Shown piece by piece: positions 758 through 25,104 of a DNA stretch of 32,000 nt; the first letter of the stretch is position 1; every line of letters starts with the position of its first letter. Under the pieces are notes generated by a model, which was not told the origin of the DNA, did no database searches, and worked only from the letters and a program-made list of their open reading frames with translations. This stretch comes from an uncultured Alphaproteobacteria bacterium (GTDB taxonomy: Bacteria; Pseudomonadota; Alphaproteobacteria; Rs-D84). The position numbers and the translations under genes are program-made. The DNA lies in NCBI GenBank assembly GCA_963931495.1, contig OZ007020.1, forward strand, positions 210,001-242,000, read 5' to 3'.

Positions 758-805
758 TGGTTGCGGAGTGTGGATTTGAACCACAGACCTTCAGGTTATG
801 AGCCT
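758..805 (-). repeat. att site: 48-bp copy of the 3' part of tRNA-fMet (anticodon loop to CCA)
   Basis: tggttgcggagtgtggatttgaaccacagaccttcaggttatgagcct is identical to 7392-7439 inside the intact tRNA. It is followed on the minus strand by the native terminator at 729-742. Confidence 0.9.
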
Positions 806-923
806 AAAATTTATATAATTTATATTAGTTTATAAAAATGATTAAAAGCTTGTGTTTCTGGGTTTTTTGTGTAAGTATATTGTTTATGAATATGTTTGTA
901 ATTTTATAGCTATTTATATAAAA

Positions 924-942
924 TTCGGCAATGAATCGGCAA
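924..942 (+). repeat. Tandem TTCGGCAA / ATCGGCAA motifs in 11-bp phase (candidate integrase or Xis arm-type sites, left end)
   Basis: aaaTTCGGCAAtgaATCGGCAAtaaga. A near-identical pair lies at 7301-7319 near the other island end, in the same orientation. Confidence 0.45.
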
Positions 943-964
943 TAAGATAATAAAGAGGTTTTTT

Positions 965-2002
965 ATGGATAGTAAGGTAAAAATACCGACAGGAATGTTT
1001 GTTTTCAATGTAAAGAATGGCACACGTACTATAAATGCACCATTTTTTAATAATAATATGTGGTTTACTCAGAAACAGATTGCAGAAATTTTTGAAACAG
1101 ATGTGTCTGGTGTTAGTCGCCATATTTCTAATATTTTGGCAGAGGGTGAAATAGATGAAAATAAGGCATTTGCAAAATTTGCAAAAAGCGAGAAATCCGA
1201 ATCTTACCCGATAAATCCAGAACCTGTTCATTATAGTTTGGATGTAGTCATTTCTGTTGGTTATCGTGTTAATTCGAAGAAGGCAACGGAGTTTCGTATT
1301 TGGGCGACAAAGGTGCTTAATGATTATATTCAAAAAGGTTTTGCCTTAGATGACGAACGTTTTAAACAAGGATATCAGACCGATAAACAATACTTTAAAG
1401 AATTGCGCGAGAGAATTAAGGAAATTCGTGCAAGTGAACGTATGTTATATCAACAAATTAAAGATATTTATGCTTTGTCGGCAGATTATGATAATAACCG
1501 TCAACAGACAATGTTGTTTTTTGCAAAGGTTCAAAATAAACTTTTGTTTGCGATATCTGGAAAGACAGGTCCAGAAATTATTCATAGTAGAGTCGATTCA
1601 AATAAAGAAAATATAGGGCTTACATCATTTAAAAATTCTCCGGATGGACGCGTGACAAAACAGGATGTAGAGATTGCTAAAAACTATTTACAAGAACCTG
1701 AAATGAAAGAATTAAGATATATTGTAAACCTATTTCTTGATTATGCAGAACATAAGGCTGAATCAGAAGAGAAAATATTTATGAAGGATTGGGAGGTATT
1801 ATTAGACGATTTCCTAGCGTTTAATAAAAAAGAAATTTTACCGAAAGCCGGTTCGATTTCTTTAGAAAAGGCTTTAGAAAAAGCCCATAACGAATATTTT
1901 AAATATCGCGAAAATCTAAAATTGGTCGAAAAGAAAAATTCAGAGATAGAATATAAAGAAGATATCAAAGAGCTTGAAAAAATTTTAAAAACAACAGAAT
2001 AG
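965..2002 (+). CDS. rhuM: RhuM family virulence/Fic-DOC-associated protein
   Basis: The segment LDVVISVGYRVNSKKATEFRIWATKVLNDYIQKGFALDDERFK matches the conserved RhuM core as I remember it. An AGAGG RBS lies upstream of the ATG. Confidence 0.75.
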   Translation: MDSKVKIPTGMFVFNVKNGTRTINAPFFNNNMWFTQKQIAEIFETDVSGVSRHISNILAEGEIDENKAFAKFAKSEKSESYPINPEPVHYSLDVVISVGYRVNSKKATEFRIWATKVLNDYIQKGFALDDERFKQGYQTDKQYFKELRERIKEIRASERMLYQQIKDIYALSADYDNNRQQTMLFFAKVQNKLLFAISGKTGPEIIHSRVDSNKENIGLTSFKNSPDGRVTKQDVEIAKNYLQEPEMKELRYIVNLFLDYAEHKAESEEKIFMKDWEVLLDDFLAFNKKEILPKAGSISLEKALEKAHNEYFKYRENLKLVEKKNSEIEYKEDIKELEKILKTTE

Positions 2003-2010
2003 GTTTTGTT

Positions 2011-3156
2011 TTGCATAAACATAATAATAAATTTAATTTTACTAAATCTGATATAGAAAAACTTACCCCGCCTGAAAAGGGGGTCATTACATATTTTGAT
2101 ACGGGGTTTAGAGGGTTAAAATTATATGTTACTGCCAATGGTGTAAAAACTTTCTTTGTTCGCAAAATGGTTAATGGTAGAGATGAGCGTTTTATTTTAG
2201 GGCAATATCCAGACTTAAGTATTCAAAACGCACGAGATAAAGCCTTGTTAACTTTATCTGATTTGGCTAATGGTATAAATCCCAATGAAGAGAAAAAAGC
2301 AAACAGAGCTGAACAGAAATTAGGGGATTTGTTTATAGAATTTATGGAACGTTATTCTAAGAAAGAGAAAAAATCTTGGGTATACGACCAAAGAGAGATT
2401 CCTAAATTTTATAGCGATTGGTTTAAAAGACGTCTTTCCGATATAAAAAAGACAGAAATTCAGCGCAGGCATGAGAAAATAAGGGATGAAAATGGATTGT
2501 ATCAGGCTAATAGATGTTTGGAACGCATCAGGGCAATGTACAATAAAGCAATAGAGTGGGGCTGGAAAGGTGATAATCCGACATCAGGTATTAAGAAATT
2601 TAAAGAAATTAAACGTGATAGGTTTTTACAACCAAATGAAGCAAAGGATTTTTTTGAATCTTTAAAGTTAGAAGAAAATATAATTATACGTAATTATTTT
2701 TATATGGCGTTGTTTACAGGTGCGCGTAAAACGAACGTTCTTGAAATGCGCTGGGAACAAATAGATATGAAAAGTGCTTTGTGGCGTATTCCAGATACAA
2801 AAAATGGGGAACCTGTAGTAGTTCCTTTGATTTCTTATGCCATGGAATTATTACGTTCTATGCCAAGAATATCGGAATGGGTGTTTCCTAATAGTAAGTC
2901 TAAAAGTGGGCATATAGAAGACCCTAAAAAAGCATGGAATCGTATTTTGCGTAGGGCAAACATAGAAAATTTAAGAATCCATGATATTCGTAGAACAATG
3001 GGGAGTTGGGAGGCTTTAACTGGTGCTAGTATGCTTGTTATTGGAAAGTCGTTAGGACATAAATCCACCAGCGCAACACAAGTTTATGCTCGTTTAACAA
3101 ATGACCCAGTTAGAAATAGCATGGAAAAGGCTATAAATACATTTATGGAAGGTTAG
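2011..3156 (+). CDS. int: Tyrosine recombinase/integrase, P4-like with an N-terminal arm-binding (DUF4102-type) domain
   Basis: The N-terminus GLKLYVTANGVKTFFVRKMVNGRDERFILGQYPDLSIQNARDKA is typical of the P4 integrase arm domain. Catalytic signature: TGARKTN (Arg), HDIRRT (His-x-x-Arg), GHKSTSATQVYAR (His...Tyr). The start codon is TTG in the ORF track. Confidence 0.9.
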   Translation: MHKHNNKFNFTKSDIEKLTPPEKGVITYFDTGFRGLKLYVTANGVKTFFVRKMVNGRDERFILGQYPDLSIQNARDKALLTLSDLANGINPNEEKKANRAEQKLGDLFIEFMERYSKKEKKSWVYDQREIPKFYSDWFKRRLSDIKKTEIQRRHEKIRDENGLYQANRCLERIRAMYNKAIEWGWKGDNPTSGIKKFKEIKRDRFLQPNEAKDFFESLKLEENIIIRNYFYMALFTGARKTNVLEMRWEQIDMKSALWRIPDTKNGEPVVVPLISYAMELLRSMPRISEWVFPNSKSKSGHIEDPKKAWNRILRRANIENLRIHDIRRTMGSWEALTGASMLVIGKSLGHKSTSATQVYARLTNDPVRNSMEKAINTFMEG

Positions 3157-3161
3157 TTAAT

Positions 3162-4010
3162 ATGAATATAAATAATTTTCTAAATATTCCAGATGTAATA
3201 AATAAAGCAGAATATCTATCTGTAGACTGTGTAGATTTGATAAATAGTATAGATTATTCGCAGGAAAGTGCTTCTTATTTGCTTAATGCGTATTCTCTTG
3301 CGCTGGTAATGTTCTTTTTTGAATCTTCGTATTATGACGCTTTAAATCAAGATATGGTCTTACCGACAAATGACGATATTTATTCTGTTATAGATTTTAT
3401 ATTATCAGAGGCTCAAAAGTGTCCAGTTGGAGATTTGCCATATATGGATTTTTTGTCATTAGAAAATAGAAATTTAAAATACGTTATTAAAGATACGGGT
3501 GTGGTTGTTGGGTATTATGCCTTTGTGTCAGCTTTAATATTATATGTTCTTGATAATATAATTTTAATGAATGTATCAAATAAATCTGAAAAAAACATAA
3601 TCTTGACGACCGCTTGTTTGAGTAATTTGTTAAATAGATTATATTCTGGTATAGATGTTTTTAGAAGTATTCCTGCTATTTATTTAAGGAATTTTATTCA
3701 GTTTTTAGTAAATATACATGATGAATCTGTACTGAAAAAAGTAGCAAAAGAATCGAAAAGAAAGCTTGCTGGTAGTGGTGGTGCGAAAAAAGCTCAAAAT
3801 ATAAGAGAAAGACGTAAAGCAGTATATGATTTTATAGATATAACGGTAGATTCTATAAGTGGTAGTGCAGCTCATAAATCTCAGGTTTTAGCAAATAGAA
3901 TTCGTAAAAATACAGAGTTGTTCGATTTGGTTGGCGATATAAATATTCTTGAGGATTGGATAGCCGAGTATTTAAAAAAGAAGAAAAATAAAAAGTTGGG
4001 GTTCTGCTAG
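3162..4010 (+). CDS. Hypothetical island protein (282 aa, Lys-rich C-terminus)
   Basis: A long ORF starts 5 nt after the int stop codon. I recognise no family. Confidence 0.55.
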   Translation: MNINNFLNIPDVINKAEYLSVDCVDLINSIDYSQESASYLLNAYSLALVMFFFESSYYDALNQDMVLPTNDDIYSVIDFILSEAQKCPVGDLPYMDFLSLENRNLKYVIKDTGVVVGYYAFVSALILYVLDNIILMNVSNKSEKNIILTTACLSNLLNRLYSGIDVFRSIPAIYLRNFIQFLVNIHDESVLKKVAKESKRKLAGSGGAKKAQNIRERRKAVYDFIDITVDSISGSAAHKSQVLANRIRKNTELFDLVGDINILEDWIAEYLKKKKNKKLGFC

Positions 4011-4080
4011 TAGCACCCCATGACTATTGTTTTATATGGTTTTATATTTCCTATGTATAGAATTACAAGGAGATATAAAA

Positions 4081-4275
4081 ATGTCTGAAAAATTACATGA
4101 AAACGATTTTTTAAATCAAAAAGAAGTTTCGGCTATTTTGGGAGTGAAGGTAACTACTTTAAATCATTGGAGGTGTATTAAGAGATATAATATTCCTTAT
4201 ATAAAAATAGGGCGGGTGATTTTGTATCCAGAACAAGAATTCAAAGTTTGGTTGAACCAGTATATGAACAAATAG
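4081..4275 (+). CDS. AlpA/excisionase-type helix-turn-helix DNA-binding protein
   Basis: This is the internal Met of ORF 4027..4275, preceded by an AAGGAG RBS. LNQKEVSAILGVKVTTLNHWRCIKRYNIPYIKIGRVILYPEQEFKVWL fits the MerR-like HTH_17/AlpA pattern. Confidence 0.75.
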   Translation: MSEKLHENDFLNQKEVSAILGVKVTTLNHWRCIKRYNIPYIKIGRVILYPEQEFKVWLNQYMNK

Positions 4276-4290
4276 GTTGGTGGTAGAGTT

Positions 4291-4779
4291 ATGGATTACA
4301 ATAATTGTTATACACAAGTTTTTAATAGTCTTATTTTTGATGAAAGCCTCTCGGTAAATGCGAGATTTGTGTATATATTGTTTGCTAGTAAAAAGAATAT
4401 GCAATGGGTTTGGTATAAAAGCAATATAATGAAACTTACTGGTTTTGGTCGAGATAAAGTGACTTTTGCTATAAATGAGTTGCAAATGGCGGGTTGGATA
4501 AAAAGTGTGTTTGCCAGAAAAAATGGGCGGTTTAATGGGTTAAAAATAACTGTAAACGATAAACCGGCTACTGAAAAACCGTTAACGGTCGATACGGTAC
4601 ATATAAATAAAGATAATAAAAATAATATAAATAATAAAAATAGAAGTAATTGTCTTATATCAAATCTTAAGAATGAGCTGTATTATAAAACTAAAAAAAT
4701 GGTTGTACCGAATGTACAACAAACTGCAATCGATGTAGAACAAGTACAACAGAAAGTACAACACAATATAATTTATTGA
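4291..4779 (+). CDS. Winged-helix DNA-binding protein (possible replication/iteron-binding or regulatory protein)
   Basis: ARFVYILFAS...IMKLTGFGRDKVTFAINELQMAGWIKSV looks like a winged-HTH recognition unit. The 3' end of the gene carries GTACAAC repeats. Confidence 0.5.
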   Translation: MDYNNCYTQVFNSLIFDESLSVNARFVYILFASKKNMQWVWYKSNIMKLTGFGRDKVTFAINELQMAGWIKSVFARKNGRFNGLKITVNDKPATEKPLTVDTVHINKDNKNNINNKNRSNCLISNLKNELYYKTKKMVVPNVQQTAIDVEQVQQKVQHNIIY

Positions 4780-4831
4780 TAATACAATATATTTTTATAT
4801 AAAAACGCCGTTCTGTTGTACTTTGTTGTAC
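4703..4831. repeat. Cluster of six 7-bp GTACAAC/GTTGTAC repeats (iteron-like, inverted arrangement)
   Basis: GTTGTAC occurs at 4703-4709, 4815-4821 and 4825-4831. GTACAAC occurs at 4714-4720, 4744-4750 and 4756-4762. Arms 4744-4762 and 4815-4831 form a ~20-bp imperfect inverted repeat around an AT-rich spacer. Confidence 0.6.
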
Positions 4832-5265
4832 TATTTTTGTGCTTTTTCATATTCGGGATTTGGAATATATTTTGGTTGTATATATTTTATTTTTTGAACA
4901 GTTCTTTTGCTTCCAAACGAATTTGTATATTTATAAGTACCGTCTTTTATAAAACAGTGTTCTGGTATGCTCATTACTTTATCGTCATACATTGTATTTA
5001 GGTAATCGTCATGTATTTTTACAAAAAATAATATTTCTGGGTCTGATTTTATGAACTGGTTTTCTGATATATAGTCTAATAAATAAACTAATATACCGTC
5101 GTTTGTTACAGAAACTACCTGCATTCCATCTGGAAACATTTCGCAGTCCGGATTTTTTATTAATTCTGGTACCGGTGCTCCAAAAGCTAGATAATATAAG
5201 TCTGATATACTGTAACTACAAGCACTTACAAATAAAGATATTAAAAGAATAAAAAAGTTTCTCAT
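4831..5265 (-). CDS. Island-encoded lipoprotein, function unknown
   Basis: MRNFFILLISLFVSACSYS has a signal peptide plus lipobox V-S-A-C. An AGGAG RBS (complement of 5272-5276) lies upstream. The gene is preceded by structured-leader copy C. Confidence 0.7.
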   Translation of the reverse strand: MRNFFILLISLFVSACSYSISDLYYLAFGAPVPELIKNPDCEMFPDGMQVVSVTNDGILVYLLDYISENQFIKSDPEILFFVKIHDDYLNTMYDDKVMSIPEHCFIKDGTYKYTNSFGSKRTVQKIKYIQPKYIPNPEYEKAQK

Positions 5266-5276
5266 ACTATTCTCCT

Positions 5277-5476
5277 AAATAAATACAGTCGCTGAAAGAG
5301 CGACTGGGAGTTGGTAACTACAATACGATAGTGCGCCATATTGGCACAAAGGCTTATTTTGACGCCTCCCAGCCATGAGCTGTGAAGCGTGCAAAGTTTC
5401 GTCTTACACAGACGCGTATTGAAGGGTTACCACACCCGTCGAAATTTACTCTACAATAAAAAACAAATAAAATCAA
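5277..5476 (-). promoter_or_regulatory. Structured RNA leader/sRNA, copy C (promoter + ~165-nt conserved structure + intrinsic terminator)
   Basis: On the minus strand: TTGATT (5476-5471), 17-nt spacer, TAGAGT (5453-5448). Conserved blocks follow: ACCCTTCAATACGCGTCT-loop-AGACGAAA. The long helix CTGGGAG (5372-5366) pairs with CTCCCAG (5310-5304). The terminator is GTCGCTC-TTTC-AGCGAC (5303-5288) plus a T-rich tail. It is alignable by eye to 15614-15819 and 24377-24587. Confidence 0.6.
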
Positions 5477-5497
5477 ATCCTTGATTTTGTTAATTGT

Positions 5498-7165
5498 ATG
5501 ATATACCATGAAAGCATTAGAAATAGGCTTAAAATGGAAGATTTAGAACAGTTTTTAAATAATCTTGGTTGTGAAGATGAACATACTGAATTTAAAGAAG
5601 CAAAAAATAACTTCAGTATATTGGGTGACTTTAATAAAAGAAATTGTATTTATGCTTATAGCGTTGCTATCGGAAACGAAGGCGGGGGATGTCTTGTTTT
5701 TGGAATTGATGATAAAAAACGTGTTGTAGGAACAAATTTTCCAAAAGACTCTTTTGTTTCCGTCAGAGAAAAGATTTATGATAAAACGAAGCAAAGATTA
5801 AAAATAGAAGAGAAGCTTTTTAATGGTTCAAGAATTGTTGTTATAAAAATTCCGAGCAGACCTTTTGGTGAATATTTTTCGTTTTATGAAGTGCCTTTAA
5901 TGAGAGTCGGACAAGAGTTAAGAACTATGAGTAGGGAGAGAATGCAAGAGATTCTTAATGAAACTAGGGTGGATTGGACAGGGCAAGTTGCAGAAAATGC
6001 TTCTGTTGATGATATTGATGAAAATGCTATATTGAAGGCTAAAGAAAATTTTGCAACAAAATTTCCAAATATTAGCAAAGAAGAAATAGACTCTTGGGAT
6101 GTTAAAGTTTTTTTGGCTAAAGCTAAATTATTAAATAATGGTAAGATAACAAATGCCGCTTTGATTTTGTTAGGTAAAGAAGAGTCTAAGATTTTGCTAC
6201 AACCCCATGTTGCTGAAATAACATGGGCGTTGAAAACAGATACAGGCGATACTCTGGATTATAAGCATTTTGCGCCACCGTTCATAATAGCCATAGATGA
6301 AGTTTTTAAGAAAATCAGAAATTTAAAATATAGATATATGAAAACTTCTGGTTCTTTATTCCCTGAAGAAACGGACCAATATAATTCTTATGTGATAAGA
6401 GAAGCGTTGAATAATTGTATTGCACATCAGGATTATTCAAAATGCGCTAGAATAACGGTTGTTGAGAAATCAGATAGTTTGGTTTTTACGAATGAAGGCA
6501 CTTTTATACCAAAGACAATAAAAGCTGTTATAGATACAGATATGCCACCACGTTGTTATAGGAATAAGTTTTTAGCGGAAGCTATGGTAAATCTGAATAT
6601 GATAGATACAGTTGGAAGTGGTATTAAACGTATGTTTGCAGAACAAAGGGCGCGTTTGTTCCCTTTGCCGAGTTATGATTTTTCAGATGATAAAGTAAAA
6701 GTAGAGATTTTTGGTAAAATTATAGATGTTAATTATGCTAGATTGTTGGCTAAAAACACAGATTTGTCTTTAGACGATATAATTTTATTAGACGCCGTTC
6801 AGAAGAAAAAAACGATAGAAGCTGATGCTGTTAGACGTTTAAGGAAGAAGGGGTATATAGAAGGAAGGTCGCCAAATATTTATATTTCCGCTATGGTTGC
6901 CGAAAAAACAGGCGCTGTAGGCGAATATTTAAATACAAAAGGTTTAGATAATAATTATTATAGAAAGTTAATATTGGATTATTTAAAAGTTAGTTCTGCT
7001 AAAAGACGTGAATTAGAAGCTTTTATATTACCAAAATTATCTAGTTTGTTAACTGATACCCAAAAAAAGAAAAAGCTTGAAAATATTCTGAATAGAATGA
7101 GATTAAAAGGGCTTATTGTAAATAGTGGAAACGGTAAACAATCTGTGTGGAGTTTGAAAAAATAG
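5498..7165 (+). CDS. AlbA_2 (Schlafen-like) DNA-binding domain / HATPase_c_4 ATPase-like protein, often annotated RecG-like transcriptional regulator
   Basis: The N-terminus EDEHTEFKEAKNNF...GGGCLVFGIDDKKRVVG is AlbA_2-like. The middle region REALNNCIAHQDYSKCARITVVEKSDSLVFTNEGTFIP is HATPase_c_4-like. The C-terminus is wHTH-like. The true start may be the Met at 5534 (MEDLEQF...). Confidence 0.65.
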   Translation: MIYHESIRNRLKMEDLEQFLNNLGCEDEHTEFKEAKNNFSILGDFNKRNCIYAYSVAIGNEGGGCLVFGIDDKKRVVGTNFPKDSFVSVREKIYDKTKQRLKIEEKLFNGSRIVVIKIPSRPFGEYFSFYEVPLMRVGQELRTMSRERMQEILNETRVDWTGQVAENASVDDIDENAILKAKENFATKFPNISKEEIDSWDVKVFLAKAKLLNNGKITNAALILLGKEESKILLQPHVAEITWALKTDTGDTLDYKHFAPPFIIAIDEVFKKIRNLKYRYMKTSGSLFPEETDQYNSYVIREALNNCIAHQDYSKCARITVVEKSDSLVFTNEGTFIPKTIKAVIDTDMPPRCYRNKFLAEAMVNLNMIDTVGSGIKRMFAEQRARLFPLPSYDFSDDKVKVEIFGKIIDVNYARLLAKNTDLSLDDIILLDAVQKKKTIEADAVRRLRKKGYIEGRSPNIYISAMVAEKTGAVGEYLNTKGLDNNYYRKLILDYLKVSSAKRRELEAFILPKLSSLLTDTQKKKKLENILNRMRLKGLIVNSGNGKQSVWSLKK

Positions 7166-7300
7166 TCTTAAACCTTAATTTTGGACGGATTTTTTTGATT
7201 TTGAGTGAATTTTTTTATAAAAATCGTTAAAAAATCCCAGATTTGTGGTATTTTTTTTGAGAAAAAAGAGTTTTATTTTAGAAGTTTTAAGTAGAGTTAA

Positions 7301-7319
7301 TTCGGCAACGATTCGGCAA
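7301..7319 (+). repeat. Tandem TTCGGCAA motifs in 11-bp phase (candidate arm-type sites, right end)
   Basis: taaTTCGGCAAcgaTTCGGCAAtagaga lies about 73 bp from the att core at 7392. It matches the pair at 924-942. Confidence 0.45.
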
Positions 7320-7360
7320 TAGAGATTTTGTTCAAATAATATGTTTTTGCTATGATAAAT

Positions 7361-7383
7361 AAAAAAACCGCAGATTTCTGCGG
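7361..7383 (-). terminator. Island-supplied rho-independent terminator for the reconstituted tRNA-fMet
   Basis: On the minus strand, CCGCAGA-AATC-TCTGCGG is followed by a T7 run (the A-run 7361-7367 on plus). It lies immediately 3' of the tRNA CCA end. Confidence 0.7.
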
Positions 7384-7391
7384 TTAAATCT

Positions 7392-7468
<77 letters not shown>

Positions 7469-15613: not shown

Positions 15614-15819
15614 TTGTTTTTTTATGAATATATAGGTATCATATATATGACATTGGTGTATTGCCGATGTTGGGCTTCATCACCCTTCGTATATGCGTCT
15701 TGCTGACGATAAAAGCTCCTGCAATAGGCAGGAGTGCAATGCCATATATTGAAACCATTGCGCTATTTACATATACGAATAGTGATGAAGCTCCTGCCGC
15801 CAAATTATTGGCGGCTTTT
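15614..15819 (+). promoter_or_regulatory. Structured RNA leader/sRNA, copy A (promoter + conserved structure + intrinsic terminator)
   Basis: TTGTTT (15614-15619), 17-nt spacer, TATCAT (15637-15642). The conserved block starts at 15671. Hairpin CGTC-ttgct-GACG follows. CTCCTGC (15716-15722) pairs with GCAGGAG (15728-15734). The alternative long helix is GGCAGGAG (15727-15734) with CTCCTGCC (15791-15798). The terminator is GCCGCCAA-ATTA-TTGGCGGC (15796-15815) plus TTTT. RBS AGGAA and the ATG at 15837 follow. Confidence 0.65.
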
Positions 15820-15836
15820 GATGATAGGAATAATGT

Positions 15837-18053
15837 ATGTGTAAATGGCGTGGTATATTTTTTGTGTTGGTTGTTTTGTTGGTTAATATTTCGCAGTATG
15901 CGTATTGCGCCACCCAGCGCCCCAGCCGTTCGGTGGTAAAGTCTGGGACGACAACGGCCAGAAATGCGGCCAGTACAATAAATGATACTTCGTCACGTGT
16001 TGTCGCGCGCAGTGCCACCACTGCCACGGTGCAAAAGAATGCAAACAGTGGTACGCATGTGGCGACAAGAACAGTTCAAAATCGTGCAAAAACACGCGCG
16101 GTGGTGGCACGTAATACAACAAATACAAACACGGTGGAAAAGACGACTGTATCATCGGTGATTGATGCAATGACCGAACAAAAAAATATGACCGATTTTT
16201 GCAAGGCGCAATATACGGCATGTATGGATAATTTCTGTAATGTTTTGGATGACAACCAGGGGCGTTGCAGTTGCAGTGCGAATTTAAGCAATTATGCCGA
16301 GACTGAGGCAGCGTTAAAAGAAGCCACGGAACGTCTGCAAGACGTTGCGCAACAAATTCAATACATTGGACTGACGGCGGACCAGGTTGAATCACTGTTT
16401 ACCGAAACAGCGGCCGAAGCAGAATTATCTGGGTCAACGGATAACAGTCAATTAATGAACAGTCTGGAATCCATACGTGACATGATAATAGATGTTGAAT
16501 CTGGTCGTGCGCGTTCAAATGCATCCAGTGGATTAAGTTTTGATTTAAGTGGTCTGTTGGACTTTTCTTTGGACAGTTCTGGATTTGATTTAGCGAGTTT
16601 GTTTGGTAATTCTGGTGTTGACACCAGCAGTATCAGCAACCAGCGTGGTGAAGATTTGTATGAAACGGCGGCTGCGCGTTGCAAGGCGTCTGTATTGAAC
16701 AGTTGTCAATCCCAGGGTGTTGATATATCAGTGATAACGAATTCGTATGATTTGGAAATAGACAAGGCGTGTATTGTATACGAACGGTCACTGACGGATG
16801 CGAACGACCAGATGTCTGCGACGGTTCGCAATGCGACATCGTTACTGCAGCGTGCGCGATTAATGGTTGCGGAACAAAAGAATGCGTATGATTTACGAGA
16901 ATGTGTGACCGAACTGGATTCATGTATGCAAGACGAATTTGTATGTGGTCGTGATTATGAATACTGTCTGGACCCAACCGGTAAGTATATCGTAAATGGC
17001 GATGTTGTCCAGGTTGTTAACCAAGATACAATGATGACAAAGTTTTGGGGTGCGTCTGAACCCAGTGGTGACCGTAATTTTATTACTGCGCATATGAAAG
17101 AAGGGGTCATAGAATTATTGTTGAACAAAATAGGTGACCCGACCGAAAATACTGGTTTATGTAATGCGGTTCTGAACAGGTGTCAACAACAATGGGAAAA
17201 CGAACAATCTGGTAAATATGATACGCTGAACCAGGTATCTTTGGCATATCTGGAAATGATTGTCCCAAGAATGGCAAAGAAACAGAAAGAAATGATTGCT
17301 GATTTTATGGCAAATTGTAAAGACAGCGTTTATTCGTGTATGAGCAAGACCAGGGTGTTGGGCAATGTTGTTCCGCGTCCGACGCAGTCTGTAATCAGTT
17401 TCTTGGGGCCCAGAATAAACGCATGTCGCACGGTCATAGATTCGTGTACAACAATATTAAACATAAGTACAAAAGAACTGTTGGCAGATTGGATACCGCA
17501 GAATGTTTGCCGTGAATATGATTTTGATAATGATGTGTGTTCGTTAAGTGCATTGATGGAACAAAATTGCCTTAATGCGGGTAATTTGTGGATTGATGGT
17601 GCGTGTCAAGACAGTACCGCGTATTATACAAAACTGGCAAGCACGTATGAAGAATTGCCCAGTTATTGTTGGCCTGGTGTTCCTGTTGCTGATTGGCCCG
17701 GGGAAGAGGGGCAGTGGTATGATTGTATTGATAGATGTAATGAACTTAGGGACTTGTTGAAAGATGAGCCGAAACCAATTCCGCCATACGAATACGGTTA
17801 CACCTGGGGCCCATCCCCTGGGAATCACCCTCAATGCACAGGAATCGGATGGTTGTCGGTAAGTGTAATAGATAATGCAGAGTTCTTTTGTTTTGCAAAA
17901 GGATGCTATTTCAATGGTACAACCAGATGTATCAGTGGGTATACCCGGATTTTTGACCCGTGTGGTTTAGGTTTACAAACTGCCGATAATTTTATATGCT
18001 GTCCACCAGATAAAACAGACGAATGTGTACAGCAATACTGTGCAGATGAATAA
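15837..18053 (+). CDS. Large secreted cysteine-rich protein (738 aa), function unknown
   Basis: It has an N-terminal signal peptide (MCKWRGIFFVLVVLLVNISQYAYC/A). An Arg/Thr/Asn-rich low-complexity region follows, with VVAR/ATR quasi-repeats. I counted about 36 Cys from the track translation. C-x6-C pairs recur (CKAQYTAC, CVTELDSC, CNAVLNRC, CKDSVYSC, CRTVIDSC). Confidence 0.75.
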   Translation: MCKWRGIFFVLVVLLVNISQYAYCATQRPSRSVVKSGTTTARNAASTINDTSSRVVARSATTATVQKNANSGTHVATRTVQNRAKTRAVVARNTTNTNTVEKTTVSSVIDAMTEQKNMTDFCKAQYTACMDNFCNVLDDNQGRCSCSANLSNYAETEAALKEATERLQDVAQQIQYIGLTADQVESLFTETAAEAELSGSTDNSQLMNSLESIRDMIIDVESGRARSNASSGLSFDLSGLLDFSLDSSGFDLASLFGNSGVDTSSISNQRGEDLYETAAARCKASVLNSCQSQGVDISVITNSYDLEIDKACIVYERSLTDANDQMSATVRNATSLLQRARLMVAEQKNAYDLRECVTELDSCMQDEFVCGRDYEYCLDPTGKYIVNGDVVQVVNQDTMMTKFWGASEPSGDRNFITAHMKEGVIELLLNKIGDPTENTGLCNAVLNRCQQQWENEQSGKYDTLNQVSLAYLEMIVPRMAKKQKEMIADFMANCKDSVYSCMSKTRVLGNVVPRPTQSVISFLGPRINACRTVIDSCTTILNISTKELLADWIPQNVCREYDFDNDVCSLSALMEQNCLNAGNLWIDGACQDSTAYYTKLASTYEELPSYCWPGVPVADWPGEEGQWYDCIDRCNELRDLLKDEPKPIPPYEYGYTWGPSPGNHPQCTGIGWLSVSVIDNAEFFCFAKGCYFNGTTRCISGYTRIFDPCGLGLQTADNFICCPPDKTDECVQQYCADE

Positions 18054-24376: not shown

Positions 24377-24587
24377 TAAAAAGGCCGTCGTTTTTATAAA
24401 GACGGCAGGAGTTTCAACACTATTGTATGCGTAATAGCGCACAGCTTTCGGTATATAACAGTGCACTCCTGCCGTTATAGGGCAGGTGTTTTACGTCCGT
24501 GCAGACGCGCATACAATGGGTGTTGAATCCCAGTATCAGAACCCCTGATACAATTCCTATGATAAAATTGTGTGCGAAAAAAATCAA
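24377..24587 (-). promoter_or_regulatory. Structured RNA leader/sRNA, copy B (promoter + conserved structure + intrinsic terminator)
   Basis: On the minus strand: TTGATT (24587-24582), 17-nt spacer, TATCAT (24564-24559). The conserved block starts TGGGATTCAACACCC (24532-24518). Hairpin CGTC-tgcacg-GACG follows. CCTGCC (24486-24481) pairs with GGCAGG. The long helix is GGCAGGAG (24473-24466) with CTCCTGCC (24411-24404). The terminator is GCCGTC-loop-GACGGC (24406-24384) plus a T-run (24382-24377). Confidence 0.65.
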
Positions 24588-24647: not shown

Positions 24648-24724
24648 GGCGGGATAGCTCAGCTGGTTAGAGCAGTGGAATCATAATCCACGTGTCGGGG
24701 GTTCAAGTCCCTCTCCCGCTACCA
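24648..24724 (+). tRNA. tRNA with CAU anticodon (elongator tRNA-Met or lysidine-modified tRNA-Ile2; not resolvable by eye)
   Basis: GGCGGGATAGCTCAGCTGGTTAGAGCAGTGGAATCATAATCCACGTGTCGGGGGTTCAAGTCCCTCTCCCGCTACCA is 77 nt and folds as a cloverleaf. The anticodon loop is ATCATAA. CCA is encoded. Position 1-72 is a G-U pair. Confidence 0.85.
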
Positions 24725-25104
24725 AAATCAGCCGGCGAATGCCGGCGTTTTATTTTGGTGTATATGGGACGCCGAACCCCCGATAAAGGGGGTTCAATCA
24801 AGCAAATAGGCGTGTGGAACACGCCGGTTGTGCAAACAAATTTGCGCAGATACGTTGTGGCATGATATGCCATAACGAATTCACCGAAGTGCTGACCAAA
24901 ATCAGCCGGCGAATGCCGGCGTTTTATTTTGGTGTATATGGGACGCCGAACCCCCGATAAAGGGGGTTCAATCAAGCAAATAGGCGTGTGGAACACGCCG
25001 GTTGTTCAAACAAATTTGCGCAGATACGTTGTGGCATGATATGCCACAACGAATTCACCGAAGTGCTGGCCAAAATCAGCCGGCGAATGCCGGCGTTTTA
25101 TTTT
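24722..25104 (+). repeat. 174-bp tandem repeat (2 full units plus a third terminator module) made of stacked hairpins and rho-independent terminators
   Basis: Units start at 24722, 24896 and 25070, each with CCAAAATCAGCCGGCGAATGCCGGCGTTTTATTTT. The two full units differ at only 3 positions. Each contains the hairpins GAACCCCC-GATAAA-GGGGGTTC, GGCGTGT-GGA-ACACGCC, TGTGCAAA-CAAA-TTTGCGCA and GTTGTGGCAT-GAT-ATGCCA(T/C)AAC. Confidence 0.85.

Follow-up and report, generated by a model that had tools for sequence, protein, structure and literature searches.

The described systems closest to the element reported here are riboswitches that work through terminator/antiterminator platforms, trp-type attenuators, the BglG/SacY ribonucleic antiterminator (RAT), PyrR and ANTAR leaders, and the riboswitches borne by phages and mobile elements, with the c-di-GMP-I and glutamine classes as reported phage examples. 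In a stretch of 32,000 nucleotides (nt) from an uncultured Alphaproteobacteria bacterium (contig OZ007020.1, positions 210,001 to 242,000 of the forward strand; hereafter the window) I find three copies, A, B and C, of a structured leader RNA of ~130 nt. Copies A and B precede chromosomal surface genes, and copy C (5437-5302, minus strand, 136 nt), the third and diverged one, precedes the lipoprotein gene of a mobile island. The description that suits the element best is that of a new leader RNA family, cis-acting, coupled to a terminator and serving envelope genes, a diverged copy of which sits on a mobile defence island.

As in riboswitches with terminator/antiterminator platforms, the leader has covarying helices round a multi-helix junction, conserved junction and loop nucleotides, and a terminator whose 5' arm is shared with an alternative pairing; its copies are co-oriented with the genes that follow, and the paralogues stand ahead of functionally related genes. 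Unlike typical riboswitches, it is closed by a helix (P1) of 22 base pairs (bp) that is very stable and barely varies within a type, its putative antiterminator shares no more than the lowest 3-5 nt with the terminator stem and crosses a closed P1 as a pseudoknot, and it has no match in Rfam. The likeness to trp-type attenuators lies in the competition of two segments, regions 1 and 3 (CUCCUGC and CUCCUGCC in A and B), for a third, region 2, with region 3 and a fourth segment forming the terminator. However, the leader lacks a conserved leader peptide, and its competing segments lie inside a four-way junction. With the BglG/SacY RAT, PyrR and ANTAR leaders it would share termination as the default and a weak antiterminator that overlaps the 5' arm of the terminator by a few nt and needs stabilising, but its domain is far larger (~130 nt, four helices), no cognate regulator gene lies nearby, and no dual-hexaloop or RAT-like motif was seen in it. 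Like the phage-borne riboswitches, copy C is a host-type cis-regulatory RNA that a mobile element carries before an accessory gene and that would tie this gene to a host signal; in contrast to them, the family is undescribed, and what carries it is a small island that integrates at a tRNA and has a variable anti-phage slot.

A scan of the whole window with Rfam returned three tRNAs only. When C, A and B were compared with the 4227 families of Rfam 15 at E values up to 10, the matches were sub-threshold noise and the gathering threshold was never met. The best of them, a similarity to SgrS (22 bits vs. a threshold of 37), aligns the terminator hairpin only and was rejected, and a literature search found no description of this leader RNA.

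On the minus strand, from 5476 to 5265, a putative promoter, 10 nt, leader C, a terminator, AGGAG and ATG follow one another. The parts of copy C are the following.

5476-5471 and 5453-5448, minus strand: putative promoter, -35 TTGATT and -10 TAGAGT with a 17-nt spacer (read directly)
5437-5426 with 5318-5307, minus strand: P1a (minimum-energy fold)
5425-5422 facing 5320-5319, minus strand: P1 internal loop, CCUU facing UA (minimum-energy fold)
5421-5415 with 5327-5321, minus strand: P1b (minimum-energy fold)
5414-5400, minus strand: P2 (minimum-energy fold)
5395-5358, minus strand: P3, with region 2, GGCUGGGAG, at 5374-5366 (minimum-energy fold)
5348-5332, minus strand: P4 (minimum-energy fold)
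5310-5302, minus strand: region 3, CUCCCAGUC (sequence read)
5306-5277, minus strand: terminator, stem-loop 5306-5286 and U-rich tail 5285-5277 (terminator scan and minimum-energy folds)
4831-5276, minus strand: ribosome-binding site and lipoprotein gene, AGGAG 5276-5272 and ATG 5265 (translation)

The promoter-like boxes have 8 of 12 consensus matches, just under the promoter scan threshold of 9/12, and a TTGATT -35 with a -10 box is present in every variant among the islands compared, despite the differing sequence around it. The 5' block of the leader reads ACCCTTCAATACGCGTCT (5427-5410, minus strand), then GTGTA-AGACGAAA. At its other end the terminator reads CAGTCGCT-CTTTC-AGCGACTG and then TATTTATTT in DNA, with the RNA stem-loop CAGUCGCU-CUUUC-AGCGACUG, and is the sole terminator-like site that the terminator scan found in the region, where shuffles expect 0.0. 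The minimum-energy fold of leader C has z = -6.6 vs. dinucleotide shuffles, and its G+C fraction is 0.49, against 0.31 for the island and 0.42 for the remainder of the window.

Separate minimum-energy folds of A, B and C converge on one architecture. A CC/UA internal loop divides the long outer helix P1 into two parts, which measure 12 + 10 bp in A and B but 12 + 7 bp in C. P2 (CGUCU-loop-RGACG) is stacked directly on P1, and an A-rich joiner, P3, P4 and a joiner containing CUAU follow, until the 3' strand of P1 shuts the fold; in all three copies the intrinsic terminator, the ribosome-binding site and the ATG come after. All three types have in common the CC/UA loop, the sequence of the P2 stem, the A-rich joiner, CUAU in the final joiner and, at the foot of P1, GGG/CUC.

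Copy C is a genuine, though diverged, paralogue of the A/B leader RNA. A covariance model built from eight A/B-type sequences with C left out (R1) detects C at 24.5 bits (E 1.1e-5), with helices that follow one another as in A and B and a full-length alignment of P1 and P2; in the ~270 kb searched with it on both strands, all else above 12 bits were true copies or their reverse complements. A and B themselves score 129-132 bits on the modelled strand and 23-25 bits as reverse complement, a gap of ~105 bits, and one G-U pair is invariant in P1, with further G-U pairs in P2, P3 and P4. The element is therefore read as RNA toward the downstream gene. This strand bias also bears on another explanation, namely that the elements are DNA repeats resembling miniature inverted-repeat transposable elements (MITE) or repetitive extragenic palindromes (REP), with the helices being inverted repeats of the DNA. 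P1 is indeed a long inverted repeat, the reverse strand does keep its 23-25 bits, and three copies do lie inside 32 kb. However, besides the gap between the strands, on the other strand the G-U pairs would be A-C mismatches, there are just three copies in ~49 kb of genome and none elsewhere in the related loci, all of them at orthologous positions across species and in constant orientation to the downstream gene, and neither target-site duplications nor terminal repeats beyond P1 were seen. I consider this explanation very improbable.

An alternative pairing involves the terminator. In A and B, region 2 (GGCAGGAG) is the 3' arm of P3 and is complementary to region 3 (CUCCUGCC), which starts in the last three bp of P1 and ends as the first three nt (GCC) of the terminator stem; the terminator stems start with this GCC in every A/B-type copy and orthologue. 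In C the pairing is GGCUGGGAG:CUCCCAGUC, 9 bp long, with three pairs changed on both sides and one G-C turned into G-U, and 5 nt of region 3 (CAGUC) are common to the terminator stem, compared with 3 nt in A and B. The three terminators are mutually unrelated in sequence. A model that encodes GGCAGGAG:CUCCUGCC as a helix, built solely from A/B-type sequences (R2), returns C as its top non-self match (21.1 bits; runner-up 12.2) and places GGCUGGGA:UCCCAGUC of C in the region 2:region 3 helix with zero non-canonical pairs. Among shuffled interiors, 0.3-0.8% contain a complement to CUCCCAGU with 7 or more Watson-Crick pairs, or with 8 or more once G-U is allowed.

The region 2:region 3 pairing is missing from the minimum-energy fold, in which region 2 pairs with the upstream region 1 as P3, and region 1 of A and B is a near-duplicate of region 3. 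Regions 1 and 3 therefore compete for region 2, and whether the base of the terminator stem is available depends on which of them wins; the terminator and the alternative pairing exclude each other in all three copies. The strongest argument that both competing pairings are functional is that C keeps both with different sequences.

That C should resemble A and B by chance, or be a decayed and non-functional remnant, is barely credible in this light, even if C has low sequence identity to A and B outside the 5' block, its P3 and P4 differ in length and register, and BLAST with A or B fails to retrieve it. Both models built without C rank it as the best non-self match, against at most 12 bits for unrelated sequence, and C retains the full architecture, the terminator overlap and the gene context. 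Moreover, in all seven other island copies read, among the related islands where the original prediction had proposed to look, leader C is 99-100% identical, and in four of them the upstream sequence differs; since C is conserved while the adjoining upstream sequence is not, this points to selection on C rather than decay.

The original prediction, made from the letters of the sequence, had taken C for a third, diverged copy on the minus strand ahead of the island lipoprotein gene, G+C-richer than the AT-rich island and followed by a terminator of unrelated sequence, AGGAG and ATG. It is borne out on these points, with the R1 score, the same fold and the same order of signals, and all the strings it quoted lie where it had put them. 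Its long-helix covariation, CTGGGAG (5372-5366) with CTCCCAG (5310-5304), exists as well, as three compensated pairs, and R2 aligns it in the helix in question, an alignment on which the prediction had made itself depend. However, the minimum-energy fold does not contain it, and the main helix is another one: P1, with 12 doubly compensated pairs, dominates among the long-range helices, and the prediction had left it undescribed. Likewise, the promoter boxes and the 17-nt spacer are there, but not at an equivalent distance, as the -10 box lies 10 nt from P1 in C and 27-29 nt from it in A and B, because C is without P0, a hairpin that precedes P1 in the other two copies.

Covariation was counted across 12 distinct sequences (three of type A, eight of type B, and C) that were aligned by structure, with the register held by N padding, and is given here by helix.

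P1: 22 pairs, 12 changed on both sides, 96.5% of cells paired
P4: 6 pairs, 5 changed on both sides, 97.2% of cells paired
P2: 5 pairs, 0 changed on both sides (one pair varies one-sidedly), 93.3% of cells paired
P3 (A and B only): 8 pairs, 0 changed on both sides, 94.3% of cells paired
Region 2:region 3: 8 pairs, 3 changed on both sides, 100% of cells paired

In total 17-20 pairs are altered on both sides, in a tally that counts changes inherited by several sequences repeatedly, and 96-97% of the cells hold a pair. When the 3' partners are slid by 1-3 columns, the pairing falls to 26-53% and 0-2 covarying pairs are left. The leader thus has the conserved structure with compensatory changes that belongs to a riboswitch-like attenuator.

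Taking these observations together, I consider it likely that the leader RNA is a cis-acting element that ends transcription conditionally, in other words a riboswitch-like attenuator. From the folds and the competing pairings I infer termination, read-through, the direction of the switch and the nature of its input as follows. The transcript would begin a few nt ahead of the element and fold into a four-way junction, closed by the long P1 with its conserved CC/UA loop and bearing P2, P3 and P4. By default, P3 would sequester region 2 by pairing it with the upstream region 1, and region 3, starting in the last P1 pairs, would contribute the lowest 3-5 nt of the terminator stem; once P3 has formed, the terminator would close beside the U tract and transcription would stop 20-40 nt before the ribosome-binding site. 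In the induced state an effector (a small molecule, an ion, a protein or an RNA are candidates) that acts on either the junction or region 1 would release region 2, or otherwise stabilise region 2:region 3, and this pairing would withhold the G+C-rich terminator base pairs next to the U tract and let transcription read through into the gene.

The position of the copies agrees with a role in the 5' untranslated region (UTR): all are co-oriented with the downstream gene, and promoter-like -35/-10 boxes stand before every one of them. The gap from terminator to ATG is only 20-40 nt in each copy, so no second promoter fits and the downstream genes would depend on read-through. Alternatively, the three elements could be sibling genes for independent trans-acting small RNAs (sRNA) of ~150 nt, whose position before genes is incidental. 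The promoter-like site and the strong intrinsic terminator that each copy has of its own would suit such genes, the terminated product would be stable and highly structured, and the CUCCU and AGGAG-like segments could pair with ribosome-binding sites. I regard this as improbable, however, as the copies and all their orthologues are co-oriented with a gene whose ribosome-binding site comes within 20-40 nt of the terminator, which leaves no room for a second promoter, as the competition between regions 1 and 3 and the terminator overlap would serve nothing in a plain sRNA, and as a lineage that has lost P3 and the terminator still keeps the downstream gene.

With region 2:region 3 enforced, a nested fold is 13-23 kcal/mol worse, even before the terminator is added. 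The fold with the terminator is the minimum-energy default, and read-through would therefore require an input. A simple two-state thermodynamic switch is ruled out by this gap, which favours an effector-driven or kinetic switch.

Several points weigh against the attenuator reading. With P1 intact, region 2:region 3 would be a pseudoknot spanning much of P1, or else P1a must open. P1 is also unusually long and stable for the closing helix of a riboswitch and is near-invariant within each type, which could mean that its sequence is recognised specifically by a protein. The family is narrow, confined to one clade of uncultured gut Alphaproteobacteria with three copies in ~49 kb, and the three downstream products point to no single obvious metabolite. 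As to the covariation, the alignment used for the pair counts was hand-fitted to the structure, there are just three independent paralogue lineages with little variation within each, P3 shows no covariation among the A and B types, and the covariation of region 2:region 3 comes from one sequence, C.

The conserved junction and loop nucleotides, together with the portability across species, favour a small molecule or an ion as the effector, and I put this forward tentatively, as somewhat less likely than not. The near-invariant helix sequences and the very stable P1 favour a protein instead, and the same terminator/antiterminator logic could then be worked by a host RNA-binding protein or a trans-acting RNA, which would make the element an antitermination leader of the BglG/SacY RAT, PyrR or ANTAR sort and no riboswitch proper. 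Within a type, P1 and the P3 stem are invariant in sequence across species whose coding DNA is ~80% identical, which exceeds what base-pairing needs, the P4 loop motif CAUAUAU-GAAA is kept between the A and B types, and the antiterminator is far weaker than the default fold, as protein-stabilised antiterminators also are. However, no RNA-binding protein gene was found consistently adjacent to the leaders, and since the island copy is identical in hosts with flanks of 69-72% identity, a protein partner would have to be conserved across these hosts. As C differs at most P1 positions, one protein that reads P1 could not recognise all three copies, and what the three have in common (the junction, the internal loop and P2) is a pattern typical of a ligand pocket. 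A protein or RNA effector is possible, though I think it less likely than not.

The units under the putative control of the attenuator are all envelope-related: a GT8 glycosyltransferase and the lipid A deacylase PagL behind B, a pilus-adjacent Cys-rich secreted protein behind A, and the island lipoprotein behind C. It may be, although I hold this to be doubtful, that the element belongs to a new class of riboswitch, whose ligand (a small molecule, an ion or a second messenger) reports the state of the envelope, that it controls the remodelling of lipid A and lipopolysaccharide (LPS) by GT8 and PagL as well as the secreted protein, and that an anti-phage island has put its own lipoprotein under a diverged copy. 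If this is true, a mobile element reads a host envelope signal directly through RNA, with no host protein required. More generally, confirmation of the attenuator would add a new structured cis-regulatory RNA from uncultured gut Alphaproteobacteria, which have almost no experimental genetics, and would point to control at the RNA level for the deacylation of lipid A and the glycosylation of LPS, two processes that affect how a cell looks to phages and to the host's immune system. The island copy suggests that an RNA sensor complete in itself can move along with a mobile element and so couple an accessory surface protein to the signal for chromosomal envelope genes, and as a natural variant C already supplies the compensatory mutations for termination assays.

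An attenuator of the leader-peptide type was rejected, as there is no conserved open reading frame (ORF). In some copies only (15729-15793; L065, L110, L116, L281), an ATG 4 nt after the region 2 AGGAG opens a short ORF (MPYIENIALLRIR or similar). Its start is CTG in copy B of the window and ATC with an early stop in L076, it is absent in C, and the covariation of P4 alters its codons. The short ORF is probably incidental to the P4 stem.

The P4 loop CAUAUAU-GAAA is found at 15742-15755 and 24445-24458 and at the equivalent places in L065, L076, L110, L116 and L281. The version in A is much like the 3' strand of P1b (CAUAUACGAA), which would allow it to pair with the P1b 5' strand; I do not claim this pairing, as no covariation links the loop to P1b when A and B are compared. 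The loop may serve as a tertiary contact or a binding site, or take part in an intermediate of folding.

The mobile island that carries copy C has the following features.

758-7439: island, bounded by 48-nt direct repeats (758-805 and 7392-7439) that are the 3' end of the tRNA-fMet
965-2002: RhuM, matching the PADLOC candidate family PDC-S05
2011-3156: tyrosine integrase, with Phage_integrase and Arm-DNA-bind_3 matches
3162-4010: ORF of 282 amino acids (aa)
4027-4275: AlpA-like helix-turn-helix gene
4291-4779: ORF of 162 aa, replication-initiator-like
5498-7165, plus strand: Schlafen/AlbA-HATPase_c_4 gene in the variable defence slot
7392-7468, minus strand: tRNA-Met with CAT anticodon and a C1xA72 mismatch (initiator-like), the integration target (ARAGORN and Rfam)

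With its direct repeats, integrase, deviating composition and cargo that varies between hosts, this is a tRNA-integrating genomic island, and it has the look of a small, satellite-like element for defence. The block that starts at the first G of leader C and runs through the lipoprotein gene, the integrase and RhuM is 95-98.7% identical between assemblies, compared with only 69-72% for the flanking lpxC/lpxK/DUF374 genes in the same assemblies, and the island therefore moves between species. The slot between leader C and the tRNA is swappable and holds differing anti-phage candidates in other islands, the sequence just upstream of leader C varying with the cargo.

L003, 3993-5777: OLD/AriA/GajA-like ATPase-TOPRIM gene
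L004, 4532-5700: PDC-M04A/B (DUF3800) pair
L005, 4514-5788: reverse transcriptase

The slot of L125 holds a reverse transcriptase too, judged by its matching upstream sequence. The alternative considered in the original prediction, that the region around C is transcribed only as the 5' UTR of the plus-strand gene at 5498, is excluded by this pattern: in other islands that gene is replaced by unrelated cargo, with the leader and the lipoprotein gene kept at 99-100% identity. Its wider proposal, a horizontally mobile island carrying the same RNA as two chromosomal surface-gene loci, holds, with the mobility shown by the contrast between backbone and flanks. The leader C unit may be a mobile module, or the island may be plugged into a host regulon, and an unchanged island copy in diverged hosts fits a self-contained sensor. 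Copy C is too diverged for a recent capture of the A or B copies of its present hosts.

The island lipoprotein (144 aa) has the lipobox LFVSAC and no match to a Pfam, NCBIfam, PHROG or PADLOC family, and is an orphan, with its own cluster alone among 5.8 billion proteins. Because its homologues are limited to this cluster, no diverged C-type leaders were collected. The island proteins have no relatives among viral contigs, and leader C with the lipoprotein gene has no match in phages and plasmids.

An inverted-repeat search singled out copies A (15672-15798, plus strand) and B (24531-24404, minus strand). The features of A and its gene are these.

15614-15815, plus strand: copy A including promoter and terminator (fold and terminator scan)
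15614-15619 and 15637-15642, plus strand: putative promoter, TTGTTT and TATCAT
15651-15669, plus strand: P0
15672-15695 with 15770-15793, plus strand: P1
15696-15708, plus strand: P2
15715-15735, plus strand: P3, with region 2 at 15727-15734
15736-15761, plus strand: P4
15791-15798, plus strand: region 3
15796-15815, plus strand: terminator (terminator scan)
15837-18053, plus strand: gene for the Cys-rich secreted protein of 738 aa

Those of B are the following.

24384-24587, minus strand: copy B including promoter and terminator (fold and promoter scan)
24587-24582 and 24564-24559, minus strand: putative promoter, TTGATT and TATCAT (promoter scan)
24550-24534, minus strand: P0
24531-24508 with 24431-24409, minus strand: P1
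24507-24494, minus strand: P2
24486-24468, minus strand: P3, with region 2 at 24473-24466
24464-24439, minus strand: P4
24411-24404, minus strand: region 3
24406-24384, minus strand: terminator
24356-23439, minus strand: GT8 glycosyltransferase gene (family match)
23358-22801, minus strand: PagL gene (family match)

The folds of leaders A and B have z = -7.9 and z = -5.3, respectively, vs. dinucleotide shuffles. The P0 hairpin of both lies right after the predicted transcription start and its stems covary across orthologues; absent as it is from C, it may be a 5'-end stabiliser rather than a part of the sensor.

Leader A is 98-100% identical where the flanking genes are ~80% and the 5' part of the downstream gene ~55% identical. 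B-type leaders were found as orthologues in seven other assemblies; P1 is identical in 9/9 B-type sequences read, the loops vary and P4 covaries. Of the GT8 proteins, those of two orthologues were matched, 60% (L281) and 69% (L110) identical to the protein of the window. These comparisons suggest that the leaders are under purifying selection. Non-syntenic GT8 homologues have no leader.

A pattern scan of the genome collection gave 95 matches, 7 of them real (L065, L076, L078, L110, L116, L125 and L151), all in metagenome-assembled genomes of uncultured gut Alphaproteobacteria; the proteins of the window likewise occur in metagenome assemblies only. As this pattern was strict, paralogues with other P1b or P2 sequences would be missed. 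A loose pattern scan of viral contigs gave 44 matches, all by chance, and a metagenome pattern scan none that was real among the 120 matches listed. Three paralogue types only were found, with no further copy in the ~10 kb to the left or the ~7 kb to the right of the window.

The 738-aa gene directly follows a type IVb pilus cluster (PilO/PilP/ATPase/PilR-like). Its product has no Pfam, NCBIfam or PDB sequence match and more than 1200 homologues, with a functional name or Pfam domain in 0/120 of those listed. The N-terminal region is Ser/Thr-rich, and this part diverges fast (~55% DNA identity vs. ~80% in the flanks). In L274, at 2850-3000, a decayed A-type leader stands in the same gene order; P0 and the 5' strand of P1 are visible, and P3, region 2 and the terminator are lost. 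The 738-aa homologue there would, judging by this sequence, escape attenuation.

Beside leader B, a tandem 174-nt unit at 24721-25104 begins exactly at the 3' end of a second tRNA-Met (24648-24724), and the array contains three instances of a terminator-like hairpin of 35 nt. In L281 (1959-1982) there is a partial duplicate of the 3' end of the tRNA close by. The array and this duplicate are possibly the scars of earlier integrations next to leader B.

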